The translations under genes were made by a program, and so were the position numbers. This document shows, one piece after another, positions 11,206 through 40,003 of a DNA stretch of 48,668 bases (position 1 is its first letter; each line of letters starts with the position of its first letter). This DNA comes from Chiloscyllium plagiosum (taxonomy: Eukaryota). The notes under the pieces are model-generated. The model searched no databases, was not told the origin of the DNA, and saw only the letters and a list, made by a program, of their open reading frames with translations. The DNA lies in the NCBI RefSeq assembly GCF_004010195.1, contig NC_057753.1, forward strand, positions 10,072,104-10,120,771, in the 5' to 3' direction.

Positions 11206-11211
11206 CTGTGA
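10888..11211. repeat. Near-perfect 162-bp tandem duplication
   Basis: ACACTGATGTTTAAATCCC at 10888 and 11050; ORF 10764..11273 shows a 54-aa repeat. Confidence 0.9.
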
Positions 11212-11480
11212 AAGGTCATCACAGTCAGTTCATGATAGAAAATCTGAACGCAATTGTAGTCACTGTGGAACATTCTTTCCTCTCTTAATCCCAGAGATCT
11301 TTGTGTAGATCTATATGTAACTGTAAACTAGCAGGGTAATGACGCAGACTGCATACCTTCACGAAGAATTCACATGGACTCAAGTTGCTGCATGGACCTC
11401 TATAGTGCAGTATTGACGCTCTTACTGAAGATATACAATATGCTGCAGTATGATATTACAAGCCTAGAAACAACTGGGTA

Positions 11481-18950: not shown

Positions 18951-19719
18951 TGTATCTCTGTCTGATTTCTAGCACATGCTTCTATGTGAAAGGGACATTT
19001 TACACTCATGTTAAGTACTGCAGTCTCTATATTTTCATACATACCTCTAAATTAGGTTTGAATGAAATCCCCCCCATTTCACTGTATTTTAGCTAGCATT
19101 CCCCCCACCCCTTCCATTCCTTATTCCATTACCTGTGTTATGATCCCCTTCTCTTTATATATATTATTGTAGACAGGCTAAATCTAGTTACTATGTCTAT
19201 AAAATATGAGAGGAAAATGCTTTTTTCCTGATCCCATACTTTGAGTCCATTACTACAGCTTGTTAAGGTCTCTTGCCAAAGAGAACTCTTAATCCTGCAT
19301 CCTTCGGTAGGATTAGATTAGGATATCTGGTCGGCATGGATGAGTTGGATTAAATGGTTTGTTTCTGTCCTGTGCATCTCTATGACTATGACTATCGAAT
19401 AAGGACCAGGAGCAGGCAGGTGGGACTAGTTTAGTTGGGGATCATGGACTGGTTGGACTGAACGGTCTGTATGACGACACAGCCTCGAATGAATGGGGAT
19501 CAATTCCAAAGAGATGTTAAAGGTCTCGAGCACCACCTTAGACACGTGTGTGGACCCCTTCCAGATAACTGAGAGCAGTGGAGCACTGTGAAATTCAGTA
19601 CGTCAGTCAACCAGCAAGTTCTCTCCGGGAGACTTGTCTCAAGAAAGGAAGCGGTTTCCTGTCCCATCAACTGGACTGTGGATCAGTTTGGAGCAGGTCC
19701 TTTATCTCTGACAAAATAG

Positions 19720-20458
19720 GTGGACAGAGTCCAGAGTGTGGTGCTGGAACAGCACAGCAGCTCTGGCAGCATCCAAGAAGCAGGAGAATTGATGTTTAGG
19801 GCATAAACCCTTCATCAGCAATGAGGCTTGTGGGCCCGAAGGGCTGAGAGATAAATGGTGGTGGGGTTGGGGGGAAGGTAGCTGAGAATGTGATAGGCAG
19901 ATGAAGGTGATTGGTCAGAGAGGAGGGTGGGGCAGATAGATGGGAAAGGTGATGGACAGGTCAAGAGGGTAGTGCTGAGTTGGAGGCTTCTGACTGGGAT
20001 AGGGTGATGATCCACTAGTTGGCACCTGTCTCCCCAATGTAGAGAAGACCACATTGGATGCAATGGATACAGTAGATGACACTGGTGGTGGTACAGGTAA
20101 ATTTCTGTCAAATGTGGAAGGATCCTTTGGGGCCTTGGACGGAGGTGAGAGGAGTGATTTTGGGCGCAGGTTTTCACTTCCTGCGGTGGCGGGGAAGGTG
20201 CTGGGAGTGAGGTGTGGACCTGACGAGGGAGTCACAGAGGGAATGGCCTCTTTGGAATGCTGGTCGGGGTGAAAGGTGTTGATGAAGATGACGAACTGTT
20301 CAAACTCATGAGAGCATGAAGTGGCACCGATATGGTCATCGATGTACTGGAGGAACAGGTGGGGGGTGGTGCCAGTGTCGCTGAGGAAAATGGACTGTTC
20401 CACGTACCCGACAAAGAGGCAGGCATAGCTGGGTCCCATGGCTACCCCTTTAGTTTGG
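19720..20458 (-). mobile_element. Internally deleted PLE (RT, GIY-YIG, terminal repeat with decayed hammerhead)
   Basis: QTKGVAMGPSYACLFVGYVEQSIF..FLQYIDD; terminal CTGATGAAGGGTTTATGCCCTAAACATC at 19791-19818. Confidence 0.85.
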
Positions 20459-20559
20459 TACATTGGTTTGGATGCCGTCTGAGGTTTGTGTGGATCACTT
20501 CAGTGGGAATGTGCAGTCCCGGGCTCAGCGAGCAGCACTGCAAGCAAAGCTCACAGAAT

Positions 20560-20885: not shown

Positions 20886-21995
20886 TGAGCCAACCTGGGG
20901 TTGGGGGGAGATGGGAGGGGTGTGTGGGTGCAGTCTAGCAGAAAACAAAGAGAGCTCGCTGACGCTCCCAGTGCACCCACGGTCAGAACGGGCAGGAGGT
21001 TCAGTCCTGGGGGTAACCCACAGCAGCGTCGCCGGCGGAATCTGCTGGTGTCTCCTCTGGTGTCTCTGCAAGTTACTGGACGACGTGAACCTCTGCCCGC
21101 AGTTGGGGCAGGCAAACGGCCTCTCCCCCGTGTGGACCCGCTGGTGCCTCAGCAGGTTGGAGGCCTGGGTAAAGCCCTTCCCGCACTCAGGGCAGCTGAA
21201 GGGCCTCTCTCCAGTGTGGACCCGCTGGTGGTCCAGCAGGTCAGAGGAGCGTTTAAAGTCCTTCCCACACTCAGGGCAGGGGAACGGCCGCTCCCCGGTG
21301 TGGATCCGCTGGTGCATCAGCAGGGCAGAGGAATTACCAAAGGCCTTCCCACACTCGGGGCAATTGAAGGGCCTCTCCCCAGTGTGGACCCGCCGGTGGG
21401 TCAGCAGGTGGGAGGAGCGGTTAAAGCTCTTCTCACACTCGGGGCAGGAGAACGGCCTCTCCCCTGTGTGGATCCGCTGGTGCCTCAGCAGGGTGGGGGA
21501 ATTGCTGAAGGCCTTCCCACACTCAGGGCAGGAGAACGGCCTCTCCCCAGTGTGGACCCGCCGGTGGGTCAGCAGGTTGGAGGATTTGCTGAAGGACTTC
21601 CCGCACTCAGGGCAGGGGAAGGATCTCACCCCAGTGTGGACCCGCTGGTGGGCCACAAGGGTAGAGGCCTGGGCAAAGCTCTTCTCACATGCGAGGCAGG
21701 AGAACGGACTCTCCGTTGTGTGGATCCGCAGGTGGGCCATCAGGTTGGAGGAGCGGGTAAAACCCTTCCTGCACTCTGGGCAGGAAAATGGCCTCTCCCT
21801 GGTGTGGATCCACTGGTGGGCCAGTAGGTTGGAGTTGCTGGTAAAGCCCTTCCCACACTCGGGGCAGGGGAATGGCCTCTCCCCGGTGTGACTGCGCCGA
21901 TGAGTCTCCAGGGCAGACGGGAAACTGAAGCATTTCCCACAGTCGCCACACTTCCACGGTTTCTCCATGGAGCAGGATTCCTCGGGTTTCTCCAT
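20859..21995 (-). CDS. C2H2 zinc-finger protein, 11 tandem fingers, 378 aa, no effector domain visible
   Basis: Uninterrupted ORF from GCCATGG (ATG 21995, MEKPEESCSMEKPWKC); 11 CxxC..HxxxH units with TGERPF linkers; acceptor AG at 22379-22380. Confidence 0.9.
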   Translation of the reverse strand: MEKPEESCSMEKPWKCGDCGKCFSFPSALETHRRSHTGERPFPCPECGKGFTSNSNLLAHQWIHTRERPFSCPECRKGFTRSSNLMAHLRIHTTESPFSCLACEKSFAQASTLVAHQRVHTGVRSFPCPECGKSFSKSSNLLTHRRVHTGERPFSCPECGKAFSNSPTLLRHQRIHTGERPFSCPECEKSFNRSSHLLTHRRVHTGERPFNCPECGKAFGNSSALLMHQRIHTGERPFPCPECGKDFKRSSDLLDHQRVHTGERPFSCPECGKGFTQASNLLRHQRVHTGERPFACPNCGQRFTSSSNLQRHQRRHQQIPPATLLWVTPRTEPPARSDRGCTGSVSELSLFSARLHPHTPPISPQPQVGSRAAQQLSD

Positions 21996-22240: not shown

Positions 22241-22346
22241 TGAAAATGAGGACTGCAGACACTGGAGATCAGAATCGAAAAGTGTCGTGCTGGAAAAACA
22301 CAGCAGGTCAGGCAGCATCCGAGGAGCAGGAGAGTCGAGCATAAGC
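22241..22346 (-). mobile_element. PLE terminal-repeat fragment in the ZF terminal-exon leader
   Basis: GCTTATGCTCGACTCTCCTGCTCCTCGGATGCTGCCTGACCTGCTG on minus; hammerhead core absent. Confidence 0.85.
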
Positions 22347-22744
22347 TGTTGATTTTGAAACTTCCGTCTTCAGGTAGTCTGTAAAAAGAGATTACAAAAG
22401 TCATCACTGTCAATCCGGGGGGAGGTGGGGTCGGAATGAGACAACAAGGTATTGACACCGACACCAGAAAGAAACTGAACATAGAGACGTGGCAAACGTT
22501 AGTGACAAGTCAGAGTCAGAGAGAGACACAGCACTGAACCAGACCCTTTGGTCCAACTCATCCACGTCAACCAGAAATCCAAAATCCATTTGCCAGCATT
22601 TGGCCCATAACCCTCTAAACCCCTCCTATTCATATACCTATCCAGATGCCTTTTAAATGTCATAATTGTTACAGCACCCACTACTTCCTCTGGCATCTTT
22701 GTACACGCACCACCTTCTGCATGAAAAACTTGCCCCTTAGGTCC

Positions 22745-25035
22745 GTTTCTAACAAGTTGCTCTCATCTAAACCCGTGACACTATGGCAATCCCAGTATAT
22801 GTTTGAAAAGTTAAAATCCCTGACAATAACCATCCTATTACTCTTACAGGTAACTGAAACCTCCTTACAAATTTGTTTCTCAATTTCCCACTGACCATGA
22901 GGGTGTCTACAACACAATCCCAATAAGGTGATCATCCCTTCCTTATTTCTCAGTTCCAACCAAATAACCTTCCTGGATGTATTCCTAGGAATATCCTCCT
23001 TAAGTCCAGCAGGAATACTATCCCTTATCAAAAACACCACTCCCCCTTCATCTCTTGCCTCCCTTTCTATCCTTTCTGAAGCATTTGTATCCTGGAACAT
23101 TAAACTGCTAGTCCTGCCCATCCCTGAGCCACGTTTCTGTAATTGCTATGATATCACATCCCATCTTGCTAATCATGCCCTGAACTCATCTGCCTTCCCT
23201 GTTAGGCTTCTTGTAATGAAGTAAATGCAGTTTAACTTGTCAGTCCTACCTTGCTCTCTGCTTTGTCCCTTCCTGACCTGACTGTTTGACTCACTCCCTT
23301 TCCCAACTGTACCAGTCTCAGATTGATCTCTTTCCTCTATTTCCCTGGGTACCTTCCCACCCACTCACCTTACTAGTTTAAATCCTCCCGAGCAGCTCTT
23401 GCAAATTTCCCTGCCAGTATATTAGCCCTCTTCCAATATTCAGGTGTAAACTATCCTTCTTGTACAGGTCACATCTACCCCAGAAGAGATTCCAATAATC
23501 CAAAAATGTGAACCCTTCTCCCATGCACCAGCTCCTCAGCCATGCATTCACCTGCTCTATCCTCTCTATTCCAACCCTCACTAGCTCGTAGAACTGGCAG
23601 TAATCCAGATTTTCCTTGACTCGAGGACCTCTTTTTTTTTAAATTCGTGCCTGACTTTCTACATTTTCCCTTCCGAATCGCATCATTTTCCCTTCCTATG
23701 TCATTGGTTCTGATGTGTACAATGACCTCCAACCGGTCCCTCTCCCTTTTGAAACATTCTGCCCCCTCTCTGAGGCATCCTTGATCCTGGCACCAGGGAG
23801 GCGACACACCATTCTGATTTTTTGCTGCTAACCACAGAAGCGTCAGTTTGTACCTCTCACTAGAGAGCCCCTTATCACAATCGATCACTTGGAACCTGAT
23901 GTACCCCTCATTGCATGAGAGCATGTCTTGAGACCAGAAACTTGGCTGTTCGTGCTACATTCCCTGAGAGACCATCACCCCCTACATTTTCAAGAACACC
24001 TTACTTGTTTGCAATGGGGACAGCCACAGAAGACTCCTGCACTACCTGTTTTTTTTTTAAATTCGTGCCTGACTTTCTACATTTTCCCTTCAGAATCGCA
24101 TCCTTTTCCCTTCCTATGTCATTGGTTCTGATGTGTACAATGACCTCCAACCGGTCCCTCTCCCTTTTGAAACATTCTGTACCCTCTCTGAGGCATCCTT
24201 GATCCTGGCACCAGGGAGGCGACACACCATTCTGATTTTTCGCTGCTAACCACAGAAGCGTCAGTTTGTACCTCTGACTAGAGAGCCCCTTATCACAATC
24301 GATCACTTGGAACCTGATGTACCCCTCATTGCATGAGAGCATGTCTTGAGACCAGAAACTTGGCTGTTCGTGCTACATTCCCTGAGAGACCATCACCCCC
24401 TACATTTTCAAGAACACCTTACTTGTTTGCAATGGGGACAGCCACAGAAGACTCCTGCACTACCTGCCTACCCCTCCTAACCCATCTCCCTGACTGTAGC
24501 TGCGGCTTTTCTCCTTTCCTATAACTGCCAAACCATCGTACCCCCAGGTCTTGTAAATTCCTCATTACCTCGAACTGTCGCTGCAACTTATCCACGCAAT
24601 TCAATCGGATTTTCAACCAAACACACGTACTGCAGACATAATCACCAGTAACATGGATATTCTCCCTAATCTCCCACATCTGACAGGAAGAGCATATCAC
24701 TCTCCTAAAGGCCACCTTTGCTCCTTCACAATGTACAGACCCAGAAAATAGCACCGTCTTTTTGCTCTAAAAAAGTGCTCCAGACTAGCACAGTCGTCAT
24801 GGTTTATATTTTTAAAATTTAATCAAGGAAGAATCCACTCCATTCGCGACTGTAGAATTACAGCAAGGTTACACGTTAAAGACTATACACTTGTCTGTTC
24901 CTGTTCTGTGAGCTTCCCCACACAGGTTCCTCCACGGTCATCTGTGAATTTTTTTGTGCATTAACTTTTCCTAGATGCACTTCAATGTCCAGTAACTGTG
25001 CAGATTCACTGCTGTGTCAGGTGGCAGTGTAGGTT
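22745..25035 (-). mobile_element. CR1 LINE 5' half: 5' UTR, ORF1 (zinc finger plus SGNH esterase), ORF2 endonuclease start; disrupted
   Basis: CSSCQMWE..YVCSTC; VIVHIRTNDIG; LYKKDSLHLN; NCIYFITRSL, GGVVFLIRD, IVRDFNF. Confidence 0.85.
23631..24466. repeat. Near-perfect 418-bp tandem duplication inside CR1 ORF1
   Basis: AAATTCGTGCCTGAC at 23641 and 24059; ORFs 23475..23924 and 24001..24342 nearly identical. Confidence 0.9.
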
Positions 25036-27250: not shown

Positions 27251-27499
27251 ATGGTCTCAAAACCATTTTTTTGCCTTCTCCTATTACCATCCACTTCTTT
27301 GTTATTCAAAAGTCAGATGACCTCAGCCTTGAATATATTCAATGACCCCCCCGCCCATTGCAGGAAGTCATCCCGATTTTTGAACTCAATTCCTCTTGCT
27401 AATATACCACTTGCCTTGCTGGTTGCTTGCTGCACCTGTGTGACAACTGGCAGTGACTGGCGTAGAAGGTCACTGAGGTCCCTTTGTACATCCACAAAT

Positions 27500-27600
27500 C
27501 ATTCCTGATGAAGGGCTCATGCTCCTTGGATGCTGCCTGACCTGCTGTGCTTTTCAAGCACCACACTGATCTCCAGCATCTGCAGTCCTCACTTTCTCCA
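27500..27600 (+). mobile_element. PLE terminal-repeat fragment; GAAAC half of hammerhead deleted
   Basis: ATTCCTGATGAAGGGCTCATGCTCCTTGGATGCTGCCTGACCTGCTG. Confidence 0.8.
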
Positions 27601-27848
27601 CATACCAATATATTATCATTTAAACCATGCACCTCCTTTCTGCCTTTTTTTTTTAAAGCAAAAGGCTTTAACTTTACATTGTGTTACTGCATTTGCTCTG
27701 CGTTTGCCAATTGAGACGCAGACCTGGACCAACTTTTCCAGAGTCTGTCCCCTCCCTGGATTCACTCCCTTTCCCTTCAGTTCGTGCAAGTCAGCAACTG
27801 AATCCCAGGATGAAAAAAAAAATTAAAAAGTGAGAGTGCCGTACCCAC

Positions 27849-27945
27849 AGATGTTGGGCAGAGTTGCAGTCTGGGGTGAAGCTCAATCTTCATTCAAACA
27901 GAGAGAGGAACAACAGCAGCTTCAGAAACTCACGGCCCAACTTCC
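27849..27945 (-). other. Putative non-coding first exon of the minus-strand ZF gene
   Basis: Adjacent to the promoter block; donor CT|GTGGGT at 27843-27848; paralog at 14275-14387 has GTGAGC at the same position. Confidence 0.55.
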
Positions 27946-27959
27946 ACATTCAGACAAAG

Positions 27960-28135
27960 AGGCGGCTCTGATTGGCAGGAGGACCAGGCTCCTTCCGGTC
28001 CTCCGGGTCTCACCATTGGTCCTTCAGATGAAAATCATGCGCCGTTTCAGTGGACAGCGTCGAGCATGCTCAGTGCTTCTGATGACACCGCCGCACATGC
28101 GCAGTGCTAGCTGACACCGAGAAGCATGCGCAATA
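27960..28135. promoter_or_regulatory. CpG-rich promoter (CCAAT, ETS, NRF1-like motifs)
   Basis: ATTGG 27971, CTTCCGG 27992, GCACATGCGCA 28093, GCATGCGCA 28124. Confidence 0.6.
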
Positions 28136-28269
28136 AGATCTGTGGAGATGCTGGCATTACTGACAGATTTTAAGCGTCCAAATGTCAATCGGAGTAAAAA
28201 AAGCTGCAGCCACAATTTTATTTTTCCTTGTGGCCCGATATTTTATTCCTTTTGAATTTTGTCCGGCTT

Positions 28270-34335: not shown

Positions 34336-34810
34336 CTTTGGAATATTGTAACTAATGAATCCACTATCTCTGCAGCCACTTCCTTCAGGAGCCTAGGAAT
34401 TAGGCCATCAGGCCCAGGGGATTTGTCTGTCCTCAATCCAAATAGTTTGGTGTGTACCTTTTCCCTGTCAACACTGATTGTTTAAGTTCTACCCTTTCTA
34501 TAGCCTCTGACTTGCCCATTCCAATAGGAAGTGTTCTATCGCCTTCCAATGTGAAAACTGAGGACAACTATTGATTTAGCATCTCTGCCATTTCAGTATT
34601 CCCCCATTAACTCACCGTTTTCATCTTCCAAGTGTACCAATACTTACCTTAGCGACTCTGTTCCCTTTACCGTACCAACAGAAGCTTTTGCTGTTCTTTT
34701 TGATGTTTGGTGCAAGGTTTCTTTTGTAATTTATCTTATCTATTTTTATTAATTCTTTTAGTATCCCTTTGTTGATGTTTGAAAGTTTCCCAATGTTTCA
34801 CCCTTCCAGT
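34335..34810 (-). mobile_element. CR1 ORF2 fragment
   Basis: DKSPGPDGLIPRLLKEVAAEIVDSLVTIFQS. Confidence 0.8.
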
Positions 34811-34889
34811 AGTCTGGAATACCATTTCTGAAAAGGCTGAGAATTAAAAAAAAAACTACATCTAAACCTTTTCTCAACACCTTCATGTG

Positions 34890-35530
34890 GCTGGGGGCCG
34901 GCAAAACCATCGCCCCGCCCCCATGGTCTCCGATTGGTTGGAGGACTCATCCAACCACGCCCCCCCCCCACCGGTTAGACGTCATACATCGGAACCCCGC
35001 CCCTTGCGTGTTGGCGCATGTGCAGTGTAGGTGCTGCAGTGAGACAAAGACAGTGTTGCTGAGTGTGGGAGAGGAATGGCGCCGGTGGCTGAAGGAACAA
35101 GAACAGGAGCCGCTGGAAAANNNNNNNNNNNNNNNNNNNNNNNNNNNNNNNNNNNNNNNNNNNNNNNNNNNNNNNNNNNNNNNNNNNNNNNNNNNNNNNN
35201 NNNNNNNNNNNNNNNNNNNNNNNNNNNNNNNNNNNNNNNNNNNNNNNNNNNNNNNNNNNNNNNNNNNNNNNNNNNNNNNNNNNNNNNNNNNNNNNNNNNN
35301 NNNNNNNNNNNNNNNNNNNNNNNNNNNNNNNNNNNNNNNNNNNNNNNNNNNNNNNNNNNNNNNNNNNNNNNNNNNNNNNNNNNNNNNNNNNNNNNNNNNN
35401 NNNNNNNNNNNNNNNNNNNNNNNNNNNNNNNNNNNNNNNNNNNNNNNNNNNNNNNNNNNNNNNNNNNGGTGAGGGTCAGGCGCATCTTGTCTTGGGGCGG
35501 GGAGCGTGGGCGGCCATCTTGGTGAGGGCA
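34890..35530 (+). promoter_or_regulatory. CpG-rich promoter/first-exon region of the plus-strand ZF gene (spans gap)
   Basis: GC boxes, GATTGG, GACGTCA, GCGCATGTGCA; after the gap GGTGAG donor-like sites and YY1-like GGCGGCCATCTT. Confidence 0.55.
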
Positions 35531-35704
35531 CCATCAACTGTTATTTCTGGGAAAGACTTCCACCCTTGTGGCAGCCCTGGCCTTTGCTGAGCTTAATTCC
35601 CCACACTGTCCAGCGACGTGCAGGTTAGGGTGGATCGGCCGTGCTAAATTACTGCTAATGCCCAAGGATGTTCTGGTTAGTGTTTATCGGCCACACTAAC
35701 TTAC

Positions 35705-35734
35705 CCTGATGAAGGGCTCCTGCCCGAAACGTCG
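35705..35734 (+). ncRNA. Minimal hammerhead ribozyme core in a PLE terminal repeat (PLE fragment 35704-35798)
   Basis: CTGATGA (35706-35712), A, GGGC-TCCT-GCCC stem II, GAAAC, GTC (35731-35733); stem I weak. Confidence 0.7.
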
Positions 35735-35799
35735 ATTCTCCTGCTCCTCGGATGCTGCCTGACCTGCTGTGCTTTTCCAGCACCACTCTGATCTTGACT

Positions 35800-35875
35800 C
35801 CTTCCGCCTGCTGCCGATTTCCGCTCTCGGCCTAGCACCGCCCCGTTTATGACGTCACAACACGGAAGTGGCCCT
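35800..35875. promoter_or_regulatory. CRE, ETS and GC-box motif cluster
   Basis: CCGCCCC, palindromic TGACGTCA and CGGAAGTG within ~35 bp. Confidence 0.5.
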
Positions 35876-36349
35876 ATCAGTTTCAGTGTGAAACACCCTC
35901 CTCTGGGCAACTCCTCATCCTGGGAGGGAGAGAGGGAAGGAAGGGGAAATCTGTTTACTTGTAGCAACTGGAATGAATCTAGGGAGGGAGCAGACTCTGC
36001 AACCTCTGGCATGTGTCTTACTTACCCGAGTGAGGAGGGACGGATGATAGCGATTGGGGAGGAGTGGATACTTTTTCTGTTTTATTTTAAAATGCACCCG
36101 GCTCCCACAAATAAATGCATCGGGTACAAGTACGGCACATGCAATAATCCACATTGCAGCTTCAAGCCAGCTGCAATGGTTTTACATCCTGTTCTTCCTC
36201 CGTCTCAGCTCCTGCATTTCAGTTTCCTTCCCCCATTCCCACCCCCGCCCCAAGACATTGATGCTGCCAAGCTGACACTCAAAAGTTCGGTTGTCCCTCC
36301 ATTCTTTCCCAATTTTCAAAACCCACAAAAGACAACTTTTCCAATCCTC

Positions 36350-36885
36350 TGAGTATCGGAGATGGGAGGTTACGTTGTGACTGTACAGGACATTAGTAAT
36401 GCCACTTTTGGAATATTGTGTGCAATTCTGGTCACCCTCCTATCGGAAGGATGTTGTGAAACTTGAAAGGGTTCAGAAAAGATTTACAAGGATGTTGCCA
36501 GAATTGGAGGGTTTGAGCTTAATTGGTTAGGGCTGTTTTCCCGAGTGTGCTGGATGCATTTATGCACATTTATAAAATCATGAAAGGCATGGATTGGATA
36601 AATAGCCAAGGGCTTTCCCCTGGGTTTGCAGGAGTCCAGAACTAAAGGGTAATAGCTTTAGGGTGGTGTGGATCTACAAAAGAAACCTAAGGACAACTTT
36701 TTAATTCAGAGTGTAGTGAGCATAAAGAATGAGTGCCAGAGGAAATTGTGGAGGCTGGTACAATTATAATATGTGAAAGTCATCTGGATGGTTATATGAA
36801 TAGGAAGGGTTCAGAGAGAAATGGGCCAAGTGCTGGCATATGGGACTAGATTAATTTAGAATATCTGGTCAACATGGACGAGTTA
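36350..36885 (+). mobile_element. 5'-truncated CR1
   Basis: LYRTLVMPLLEYCVQFWSP..VKLERVQKRFTRMLP plus 3' UTR. Confidence 0.8.
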
Positions 36886-38113
36886 AGAACATAAGACATA
36901 GGAGAGGAAGTAAGACCATTCAGCCCGTTGAGTCCACTCACCATTTAATCATGGCTGATGGGCATTTCAACTCCACTTACCCGCACTCTCTCCGTAACCC
37001 TAATTCCTTGCAAGATCATGAATTTATCAATCTCTGCCTTGAAGATATTTAACGTCCCGGCCTCCACTGTGCTCCGTGGCAATGAATTCCACAGGCCCAC
37101 GCTCTATGGCTGAAGAAATGTCTCCTCATTTCTGTTCTAAGTTGACCCTCTCTAATTCTCAGGTTGTGCCCATGCGTCCTAGTCTCCCTGCCTAATGGAA
37201 ACAACGTCCCAGCATCTACCCTTTCTAAGCCATGCATTATCTTGTAAATTTCTATTAGATCTGCCCTCAACCTTCTAAAATCTAATGAATACAATCGCAG
37301 GATCTTCAGCCATTCATCGTATGTTAGGCCTACCATTCCAGGGATCCTTCGTGTGAATCTCTGCTGGACACACCCCAGTGCCAGTATGTCCTTCCTGAGG
37401 TTTGGGGACCAAAATTGGGCACAGTATTCGAAATGGGGCCTAACTGGAGCTTTATAAAGTCTCAGAAGCATGTTACAGATTTTAAATTCCAACGCCCTTG
37501 AGATAAATGACAACATTACATTTGCTTTCTTAATCATGGACTCAACCTGCAAGTTAACTTTGAGAGAATCCTGGACTAGCAATCCCAGATCCCTTTGTAC
37601 TTTGGCTTTATGAATTTTCTCACTGTTTAGAAAATAGTCCATGCCTGTATTTTTTTTTTCCCCAAAGTGCATGACCTCTCATTTGCTCACGTTGAATTTC
37701 ATCAGCCATTTCCTGGGCCACTCTCCTAAACTGTCTAAATCTTTCTGCAGCCTCCCTACCTCCTCAGTACTACCTGCCTGTCCACCTCATTTGTATCATT
37801 GGCAAACTTTGCCAGAATGCCCCCAGTCCCTTCATCCAGATCAATTAATATATAGAGTGAACAGCTGTGGCCCCAACACTGAACCTTGTGGGACACCACT
37901 TGTTACCAGCTGCCATTCGAAAAAACCTTTTATCCTAACTCTCTGCCTTCTGTGAGACAGCCAGTCCTAAATTCATGCCAGTAGCTCAACATGGCCCCCC
38001 CCTTACTCAGCAGCCTCCCGTGAGGTACTTTATCAAAGGCCTTTTGGAAGTCTAGATAGATAACATCCACCGGGTTTACCTGGACTAACCTACTTGTTAC
38101 CTCTTCAAAGAAT
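36886..38113 (-). mobile_element. CR1 RT and 3' end
   Basis: SGVPQGSVLGPQL; VQRDLG; RPHFEYCAQFWSP; TRTHGHNL; TCTTATGTTCTT tail. Confidence 0.9.
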
Positions 38114-38669
38114 TAAATTAGACCAAAGGGGCAGTTTCTGTGCTGTGTACCTCTATGAATCTGGCTTGGCAATAATGTTAGCCATGTCTGTATGTTCAGT
38201 TTGTCTCTAGTGTTGGTGTCAATAGCTTGCTGCCTCATTTCGCTCCCCACCCCAAACCTCCTCGGGACATTAACCATTTTGTCACTGGTTGCTTCTAAAG
38301 AATACTGTATACGTTTGCTTCCCAAAATCAGTCCTGCTCACTCTCAGCAGCGTCCCAGTGTCGTGAAAGATATTAACTTTTCAGCAGAGTGATCCAAAAT
38401 TCAAAGAAATGTCAGTCTTGATGTTTTTCTTTACTGCCCCTGTAAGATCCTGAATCAGCACCTTCAGGAGGATTAGTTAGAGTGGAGAGAGAACAGAGGG
38501 GGAGAGAGGCTGGGATGGTGCTTTCAATTTTGTGGAATAACAAAAGAAAAGAATGTTCCGCAGAAAGTAGAATTGCTTGTTCTGAATTTCTACCCTGAAC
38601 TGACATTGACATTTGTAATCTCTTTACAGAGTATTTGACGATCTGATGACTGAAGTTCCAAAATCAACA

Positions 38670-38791
38670 GATGAAAGGCTTACACCCGAAACGTCGACTC
38701 TCCTGCTCCTCGGATGCTGCCTGACCTGCTGTGTCTTTCCAGCGCCCCACATTTTGACTCTGGCTCTCCAGCTTTCGCAATCCTCACTTTC
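38670..38791 (+). mobile_element. PLE terminal-repeat fragment in the ZF terminal-exon leader, damaged hammerhead
   Basis: GATGAAAGGCTTACACCCGAAACGTCGACTCTCCTGCTCCTCGGATGCTGCC, 40 nt after the acceptor AG at 38628-38629. Confidence 0.85.
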
Positions 38792-38995
38792 ACATCAACA
38801 GGTCCGTGACAAATTTTGACTCTGATTCTGTGAGAAGGAGCAAAGCTCTTTGGTTCCTGTTTCAATATATTTTCTGCATCAGTGGGACTGGATGAGAGAC
38901 CCTACTATTGCAGCACAGTGAGTGTGGAGCCTGAAACAGGAATTCACGTCAGGGAGGGGCTCTATACATGTTTGTGTGCGGCTGAAGATTCGGTC

Positions 38996-40003
38996 ATGGA
39001 GAAACCCGAGGAATCCCGTCCCGTGGAGAAACCATGGAAATGTGGTGACTGCGGGAAAGGCTTCCGTGTACCGTCTGCCTTGGAGACTCATCGGCGCAGT
39101 CACACTGGGGAGAGGCCGTTTTCCTGCCCTGAGTGTGGGAAGGGGTTTGTTCAGGCCTCCCACCTGCTGTCCCACCATCGGGTCCATACTAGGGTCTGGC
39201 GGTCCACCTGCCCCGTGTGTGGGAAGGGTTTTACGCAGGCCTCCCACCTTGTGATCCACCAGCGCAGTCACACCGGGGAGAGGCCATTCTCCTGCGCTGA
39301 GTGCGGGAAGGGCTTTACTCAGGCCTCCCACCTTGTGGCCCACCGGCGGGTCCATACTGGAGAGAGGCCGTTCTCCTGCTCCGAGTGCGGGAAGAGATTT
39401 ACCCACTCTTCCCACCTCCAGGCCCACCAGCGGGTCCACACCAGAGAGAGGACATTCTCCTGCCCTGAGTGTGGGAAGGGCTTTACCCGCTCTTCTGCCC
39501 TGCTGGCCCACCAGCGGGTCCACACCGGCAAGCGGCCCTTCCCTTGTTCTGAGTGTGGGAAGGCCTTCAGCGATTCTTCCACCCTGCTGGCCCACCGGGG
39601 ACTCCACTCTGGGGAGAGGCCCTTTAGCTGTCCGAAGTGTGGGAAGGCCTTCAGCAATTCCTCTGTCCTATTGAGGCACCAGCGGATCCACACGGGGGAG
39701 AGGCCCTTCAGCTGCCCTGAGTGCGGGAAGGGTTTTACCCAGGCCTCCCACCTACTGACCCACCAGCGGGTCCACACGGGTGAACGGCCGTTTGCCTGTT
39801 CCGAGTGTGGAAAGGCCTTTGTCGACTCGTCGGACCTGAGGAGGCACCGGCGGGTCCACACTGGAGAGAGGCCATTCCTCTGCACTGAGTGTGGACGGAG
39901 GTTCACGTTGTCCTGCAACTTACAGAGGCACCAGCGGGTGCACCAGCGCTCTCAACAATTGGATTCTACCAGTGATGCTGCTGTGGGTCACCCTCGGTCA
40001 TGA
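38996..40003 (+). CDS. C2H2 zinc-finger protein, 11 tandem fingers, 335 aa, no effector domain visible
   Basis: Uninterrupted ORF from GTCATGG (MEKPEESRPVEKPWKC); 11 fingers with TGERPF-type linkers; paralog of 20859-21995. Confidence 0.9.
   Translation: MEKPEESRPVEKPWKCGDCGKGFRVPSALETHRRSHTGERPFSCPECGKGFVQASHLLSHHRVHTRVWRSTCPVCGKGFTQASHLVIHQRSHTGERPFSCAECGKGFTQASHLVAHRRVHTGERPFSCSECGKRFTHSSHLQAHQRVHTRERTFSCPECGKGFTRSSALLAHQRVHTGKRPFPCSECGKAFSDSSTLLAHRGLHSGERPFSCPKCGKAFSNSSVLLRHQRIHTGERPFSCPECGKGFTQASHLLTHQRVHTGERPFACSECGKAFVDSSDLRRHRRVHTGERPFLCTECGRRFTLSCNLQRHQRVHQRSQQLDSTSDAAVGHPRS

Follow-up and report, generated by a model that had tools for sequence, protein, structure and literature searches.

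The window analysed here, a stretch of 48,668 nt from the genome of Chiloscyllium plagiosum, contains a cluster of single-exon C2H2 zinc-finger (ZF) arrays between 3400 and 47900, with arrays of 11 fingers at 21110-21950 (minus) and 39041-39881 (plus) and shorter or broken arrays near 3400-3560, 10350-10690, 30875 and 47540. A hammerhead-like motif is located upstream of the plus-strand 11-finger ORF and on the same strand, at the 5' edge of a short repeat stub and within the putative first intron of this gene (Table 1). An N gap (35121-35467) hides the end of the putative first ZF exon. Downstream of the stub, at a distance of 50-65 nt from it and about 115-130 nt from the predicted cleavage site, is the CRE/ETS cluster that the preliminary description had placed near the hammerhead; its CRE is the only full CRE in the window, and the CpG observed/expected ratio is 0.76 in 35601-35900.

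Table 1. Features of the locus and of related copies in the window
Feature	Positions	Strand	Basis
Minimal type I hammerhead motif	35706..35733	+	letters read; match to the min-HHR consensus
Stem II, 4 bp, GGGC (35714-35717) with GCCC (35722-35725), loop UCCU	35714..35725	+	pair probability 0.99 in the predicted fold
Loopless palindrome ACGU (15.2-16.2 palindromic)	35729..35732	+	stem III only between two copies
Complete stub of ~96 bp, with hammerhead and tail, from the 3' end of a Penelope-like pseudo-LTR	35705..35800	+	BLAST, alignments
Decayed SINE-like flank, two ~53-nt units	35580..35706	+	BLAST to other SINE copies in the window, alignment
Putative first intron of the ZF gene (inferred)	35469..38629	+	donor-like GTGAG at 35469, polypyrimidine tract, acceptor-like AG at 38628-38629, depths
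CRE (TGACGTCA, 35850-35857) and ETS-like CGGAAGT (35863-35869)	35850..35869		motifs, CpG-rich segment
Second sense copy of the stub family in the putative ZF transcript	38671..38793	+	core broken, 8-nt target-site duplication
Single-exon C2H2 zinc-finger ORF, 11 fingers, putative host gene	38996..39997	+	Pfam zf-C2H2, E 1.2e-78
Internally deleted Penelope-like element	19718..20472	-	tblastn with RT proteins, alignment

The letters of the motif agree with the preliminary description, which had listed an intact core, an extra A, a 4-bp stem II, an ACGU palindrome and a GUC cleavage triplet. CUGAUGA at 35706-35712 corresponds to C3 to A9, with C35705 directly 5' of it, and 35726-35729 to G12, A13, A14 and A15.1; these are followed by C15.2 (35730), G16.2 (35731), U16.1 (35732), C17 (35733) and G1.1 (35734), and the predicted scissile bond is 35733/35734, after the GUC triplet. 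The extra base, A35713, lies between positions 9 and 10.1, and the pair G10.1:C11.1 is G35714:C35725. In the predicted fold of the monomer the ACGU of stem III has a pair probability of 0.000, and an ACGU duplex is predicted at -1.7 kcal/mol. The motif fits the published min-HHR consensus (CUGANGAH G..C GAAAN palindrome NUH; supplement of PMC4209133, partial text). A strict descriptor, consisting of the core, a 4-bp stem II and GAAA-x-x'-U-H, matched the window once, at 35706-35733, compared to a mean of 0.005 in shuffled sequences (1 of 200 shuffles held a match). A loose core pattern gave 5 window matches versus 1.65 expected, and at least 5 were found in 6 of 100 shuffles, which by itself is not above chance.

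The preliminary description had also noted that the copy is truncated just 5' of the core and that its stem I is weak, and this is indeed the case: in register, stem I at 35705 reads C:G, a C-A mismatch, A:U and a U-U mismatch, a single contiguous pair, whereas window relatives with a complete upstream part show C:G and U:A (two contiguous pairs), then U-U and A:U. Published min-HHRs have 2-6 contiguous stem I pairs, 2-bp stems I included (supplement of PMC4209133, partial text), and a short stem I is therefore not always fatal; the 35705 copy, however, falls below the at least 2-3 contiguous pairs of a min-HHR helix I, and its motif is thus best filed as a truncated relic rather than as a complete motif. 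In folds predicted with ViennaRNA, a model that leaves aside the hammerhead tertiary core and Mg, the pair C35705:G35734 has a probability of 0.001, whereas pairing between the core and the cleavage region (P 0.29-0.58) gives an inactive extended hairpin, and a homodimer with an ACGU helix reaches -18.9 kcal/mol compared to -28.4 kcal/mol for two monomers. Monomers of min-HHRs show no detectable cleavage and dimers or multimers low activity (PMC4209133, partial text); the PAc hammerhead of Anolis failed to cleave unless its protein was present, and RNA-seq showed no ends at this site (PMC11167929, partial text). The hammerhead copy at 35705 is probably inert, an inactivity that we infer, as the folds ignore tertiary structure.

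The stub belongs to a dispersed repeat family. BLAST with 35705-35800 detected 7 other window copies with 82-93% identity, an eighth further copy at 575 (minus) has the head and the upstream part in common with the stub family, and a motif search allowing up to 3 mismatches gave 5 window matches versus 0.00 expected. The copy at 19818 links this family to a coding element: on one strand and in this order it comprises an RT piece (20472-20179), a GIY-YIG piece (20107-20018; VIYCIHCIQCGLLYIGET, with the pattern VIYCIHC..C..LYIGET), a 3' UTR, a decayed hammerhead at 19818, and the tail. The best tblastn E-values, which refer to a window-sized database of 49 kb, were 8e-6 for the RT and 0.002 for the GIY-YIG-like piece. 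A pair of cysteines placed between GIY and YIG is a diagnostic feature of the endonucleases of Penelope-like elements (PLEs; PMC8557442, partial text). Through the 19818 copy the family thus shows a repeat 3' of an RT with a C-terminal two-cysteine GIY-YIG domain; no coding sequence is present in the 35705 copy. Since the copy at 19718-20472 runs into GIY-YIG- and RT-like sequence, the stub repeat represents the end of a Penelope-like element, and the assignment to Penelope-type minimal hammerheads, already made in the preliminary description, holds by both the consensus match and this link. In addition, the family consists of dispersed, 5'-truncated copies with a variable 3' tail (loose ends at 35782-35794), the pattern of endonuclease-bearing PLEs.

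The link to PLEs is drawn from motif and weak tblastn matches because Pfam and database searches did not recognise the decayed pieces. Pfam assigned no significant family to the GIY-YIG or RT fragments (four PLE fragments; a fifth frame gave one sub-threshold transposase match), none of 17 candidates from protein databases was significant for the GIY-YIG fragment, a second search with it gave one weak, unrelated-looking match, and a PDB search with the RT fragment gave 0 matches. A separate RT fragment at 5755-6408 matched 26 of 382 candidate proteins, most of them with PF00078; its best matches were from sharks, with 62% identity, in line with a shark genome as the origin of the window. Judging from an RT motif, the parent element is presumably Neptune-like.

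The 35705 copy is 5'-truncated at the core, and its 3' end is about 30 nt shorter than those of copies 7170, 27505 and 38670. The SINE-like flank, which we take to be of the HE1 family, ends in ..TTACCC and overlaps the ATTCC of the stub family by a 2-nt microhomology, CC, at 35705-35706, and the 5' arm of the family was therefore replaced by SINE letters. The search for a target-site duplication of this stub yielded only 4-nt candidates, none longer. In an alignment of the 35705 copy with 6 window copies (copies 575 and 15696 were left out), it differs from the majority of the other 6 at 2 of 28 motif sites and 1 of 57 tail sites; the other aligned copies differ from the majority at 4-8 of 53-57 tail sites. 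The tail is thus as well kept as the core, which indicates that the copy is young, and the greater conservation of the core than of flanking element sequence that would mark a domesticated ribozyme is not seen. A point against an inert stub is that, among the 7 aligned copies, only that at 35705 retains both the core and stem II intact. Judged from this alignment, its intact core is explained by youth, and nothing points to selection on the ribozyme.

Sequencing depths point to a very large family. Runs X1 and X3 are guessed to be RNA; the kind of run X15 is unrecorded and appears genomic-like (29 of 30 bins covered). These are three of the four runs compared with the region, out of 24 listed; the fourth, the raw-read run X20, gave 0 reads there, which carries no weight as a test. 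In X15, 108,014 contigs match the region and the stub is the deepest bin: the bin 35720-35903, which includes most of the stub, has a summed depth of 4.6 million compared to 8.8-12.6 for single-copy contigs. If up to 31-fold overcounting is allowed for, this corresponds to roughly 3e4 to 1.3e6 copies, an estimate valid as an order of magnitude only because depth is not copy number and X15 possibly stems from a relative. By this rough count, the family to which the 35705 stub belongs numbers tens of thousands of copies at least. The family is also present in the two presumed RNA runs, with bin depths of 122,055 in X1 and 174,990 in X3.

We consider the 35705 stub, with a probability of roughly 0.87, to be a young 5'-truncated retrocopy of the pseudo-LTR end of an endonuclease-bearing Penelope-like element, and inert intronic cargo if it is transcribed. 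Starting from the tail, the RT of the element would have reverse-transcribed the element's RNA as far as the 5' edge of the hammerhead core, and the new copy would then have joined the decayed SINE via the 2-nt microhomology. In the parent element two motifs would pair through ACGU to form a dimeric hammerhead, probably assisted by protein. At the 35705 locus the enzyme half is left with a single stem I pair and lacks an intact cis partner. We did not find an intact sense partner in the putative intron or transcript; the only other sense copy found there is that at 38670, in which U4 is changed to A and 2 of 4 stem II pairs are left, with ACGUC intact. With one stem I pair and without an intact cis partner, the motif would most likely remain uncleaved if transcribed. 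Within a ZF pre-mRNA it would most likely adopt the extended stem II hairpin, cleave at no meaningful rate, and be spliced out as neutral cargo.

Whether the stub is part of the ZF pre-mRNA depends on where transcription starts. The claim that the hammerhead lies in sense orientation in the first ZF intron stands with respect to strand, and a first-intron location is plausible from the donor- and acceptor-like sites, with no splice joint seen: a joint 35468-38630 was not among the 15 joints listed out of 83. Depth is 0 at 34800-34983 in both X1 and X3, rises to 824 (X1) and 34 (X3) at 34984-35167, and is low after 35468, as expected for a first exon common to many paralogues. Alternatively, the CRE/ETS cluster, a possible second promoter or enhancer, could be the real or main ZF promoter, which would place the stub, still inert, upstream of the start and outside the pre-mRNA. 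This alternative bears only on where the stub lies and does not conflict with the retrocopy explanation; we regard it as unlikely. The combination of a CRE and an ETS-like site in a CpG-rich segment so close to the stub, a second donor-like GTGAG at about 36030, and the lack of depth in X1 and X3 at 35807 or 35845 are what one would expect of such a promoter. However, the step in depth at 34984 fits an upstream first exon, and X1 contigs also cover 35525-35623 (depth 6.9) and 35623-35733 (depth 17.7), that is 7-18 on 35525-35733, with none listed there for X3; these X1 contigs, which carry no strand, possibly derive from paralogues. Moreover, the segment 35900-36010 is similar to the start of the putative first intron of the paralogue, although the alignment as a whole, with a score of 124, did not exceed shuffles (maximum 128). 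A promoter comparison with the paralogue at 27900-28200 likewise gave no excess over shuffles (82 versus a mean of 84).

The genomic-like run X15 has a depth of 89-131 over 35513-35733 and of about 10 at 35807-35845. This suggests that the 5' part of the intron exists in about ten nearly identical copies and the CRE/ETS segment in one, and it hints at several close paralogues that may share the neighbouring intron stretch.

Another view of the stubs themselves would be that they form a separate non-autonomous family, retrozyme- or SINE-like with a unit of about 100-130 nt, instead of being truncated copies of an autonomous element. Three of the nine window copies (35705, 27505, 38670) start at the core or a few bases from it, as units of such a family would, two of them with 6-8-nt target-site duplications, and non-LTR retrozymes, which are non-autonomous PLE derivatives, have been found in one chondrichthyan (bioRxiv 10.64898/2026.07.22.740005, partial text). 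On the other hand, four of the nine (5489, 7170, 19818 and 575) reach further upstream, through a pyrimidine-rich 3' UTR to a GIY-YIG-like frame and thus to PLE coding sequence, the 3' ends vary, and none of the 11 tandem-repeat rows of the window is a tandem array of the stub. As retrozymes are defined by tandem units, the stub is by this measure not a retrozyme, and a separate family is improbable.

Still less probable is a working intronic ribozyme, in which the substrate half at 35705 would be cut in trans by a copy that kept its 5' arm, or with the help of a Penelope protein, lowering ZF mRNA. This substrate half (ACGU, GUC and 3' arm) is intact, partners could be abundant, and the family is present in X1 and X3; protein assistance has been described for PAc (PMC11167929, partial text) and domesticated intronic hammerheads exist in amniotes (PMC6155905, partial text). 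However, even the best 5' arm in the window, that of copy 7170, would offer no more than C:G, U:A, U-U and A:U next to an ACGU duplex of -1.7 kcal/mol, and the core of the cis partner at 38670 is broken, with no ACGU helix predicted between the two copies. A hammerhead is missing from the corresponding site of the in-window paralogue, whose 27505 stub is antisense and has lost half of the motif. High copy number, youth, the missing stem I and the missing intact partner together speak against the special or functional status that the preliminary description had implied for this hammerhead. The X1 contig 35623-35733 stops at C17, which taken by itself would agree with cleavage. We rejected this end as a cleavage mark: its position is some 30 nt inside a high-copy repeat, at which a graph of 31-letter words must branch, and contigs cannot show RNA ends. 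A k-mer break thus explains the contig end, the alternative cause being cleavage.

In a broader version, which we think far-fetched, the vast pool of intronic Penelope stubs would be latent cut sites; a stub such as that at 35705, whose intact ACGU-GUC substrate half is close to the 5' end of a zinc-finger gene, would undergo trans cleavage only at high levels of Penelope RNA and protein. If this were true, the output of a zinc-finger family would be tied to transposon activity, and if trans cleavage of intronic stubs is real at all, it would connect transposon expression with pre-mRNA cutting across the genome.

A chance resemblance to a hammerhead can practically be dismissed: the strict descriptor found 1 match versus 0.005 expected, the site is the pseudo-LTR of a Penelope-like element, and every feature of the published consensus is matched, against which stand only the lack of an Rfam match and of significant covariation. 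The Rfam covariance search, run on the window at gathering score and on 35400-36100 at E-values up to 10, gave no hammerhead match; the Rfam hammerhead models presumably do not cover forms with a loopless stem III. Among 6 window copies, stem II shows one compensatory change, from G:C to A:U, and its covariation is not above that of shuffles (57, 142 and 77 of 500). Scans of metagenome contigs and viral contigs with the motif pattern gave 0 matches.

The closest known counterparts are the min-HHRs in metazoan Penelope-like pseudo-LTRs (Cervera and de la Pena 2014, PMC4209133, partial text). They have in common with the 35705 motif the CUGANGA core, the base between positions 9 and 10.1, the pair G10.1:C11.1, the loopless palindromic 15.2-16.2 and the position at the end of a PLE, mostly as solo truncated copies; they differ in having 2-6 contiguous stem I pairs instead of one, and the 4-bp stem II of the 35705 copy is at the short end of their range. 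Neither "shark" nor the genus Callorhinchus was found in the portion of the PMC4209133 supplement that was searched. PAc, a Poseidon element of Anolis carolinensis (PMC11167929, partial text), resembles the stub in that the hammerhead is followed by about 60-100 nt with variable tail ends, which in both cases match RT initiation downstream of the hammerhead; PAc was, however, assayed as a full element with its protein, whereas 35705 is a stub only. Non-LTR retrozymes and newt satellite 2 (bioRxiv 10.64898/2026.07.22.740005; PMC6155905; both partial text) are likewise type I and need a second copy to cleave, but their tandem arrays provide this partner in cis, while the 35705 copy is solitary with no intact partner nearby. 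The amniote intronic hammerheads of RECK, CTCL and DTNB (PMC6155905, partial text) are also located in sense orientation in an intron, which at 35705 is a putative one; in contrast to the shark motif they are conserved across species and possess a full helix I with tertiary contacts, whereas the 35705 copy is young, belongs to a very high-copy family, has no stem I, and is missing from the equivalent place of the in-window paralogue. By its way of working and by its origin, the 35705 motif belongs with the minimal, dimer-type hammerheads found in Penelope-like elements.

We found no paper on the shark stub family in the literature searched, a search that did not extend to the supplements of the retrozyme preprint or to most subscription papers; the family may thus be undescribed in print, the kind itself being known since 2014. 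As it stands, the 35705 copy matters little, as it is one more solo min-HHR from a truncated Penelope-like element. Two points are more useful: stubs of this type are very numerous in sharks, and a core left intact in one copy is a sign of youth and not of function.

Several other repeats of the window deserve mention. The region 4420-7291, between two N gaps, contains a 1681-bp direct duplication (91-98% identical), each unit of which consists of a Penelope RT fragment, a tRNA-like piece and a GIY-YIG/pLTR end, the latter maybe of another family; the units may be chimeric or have arisen as an artefact of assembly. The tRNA-like piece at 6462-6533 (minus) scores 34.7 bits with the Rfam tRNA model, ARAGORN reported no tRNA, and the anticodon CUC was read by eye. 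Perfect two-copy tandem repeats, 98-99% identical, are found at 886-1341 (228 bp), 23632-24466 (418 bp) and 10888-11212 (162 bp), the first of which contains GIY-YIG pieces; these are possibly assembly artefacts. The stub at 27498-27620 (+) is antisense in the putative first intron of a minus-strand ZF paralogue; a 21-nt internal deletion has removed the 3' half of its hammerhead, and it is flanked by a 6-nt ATCATT repeat. Finally, two inverted paralogous ZF genes carry the same Penelope stub about 40 nt after the predicted acceptor, at 38663-38801 (+), with an 8-nt target-site duplication at 38663/38794, and at 22243-22350 (-). This stub predates the duplication of the ZF gene and may be exonised in the 5' UTR.
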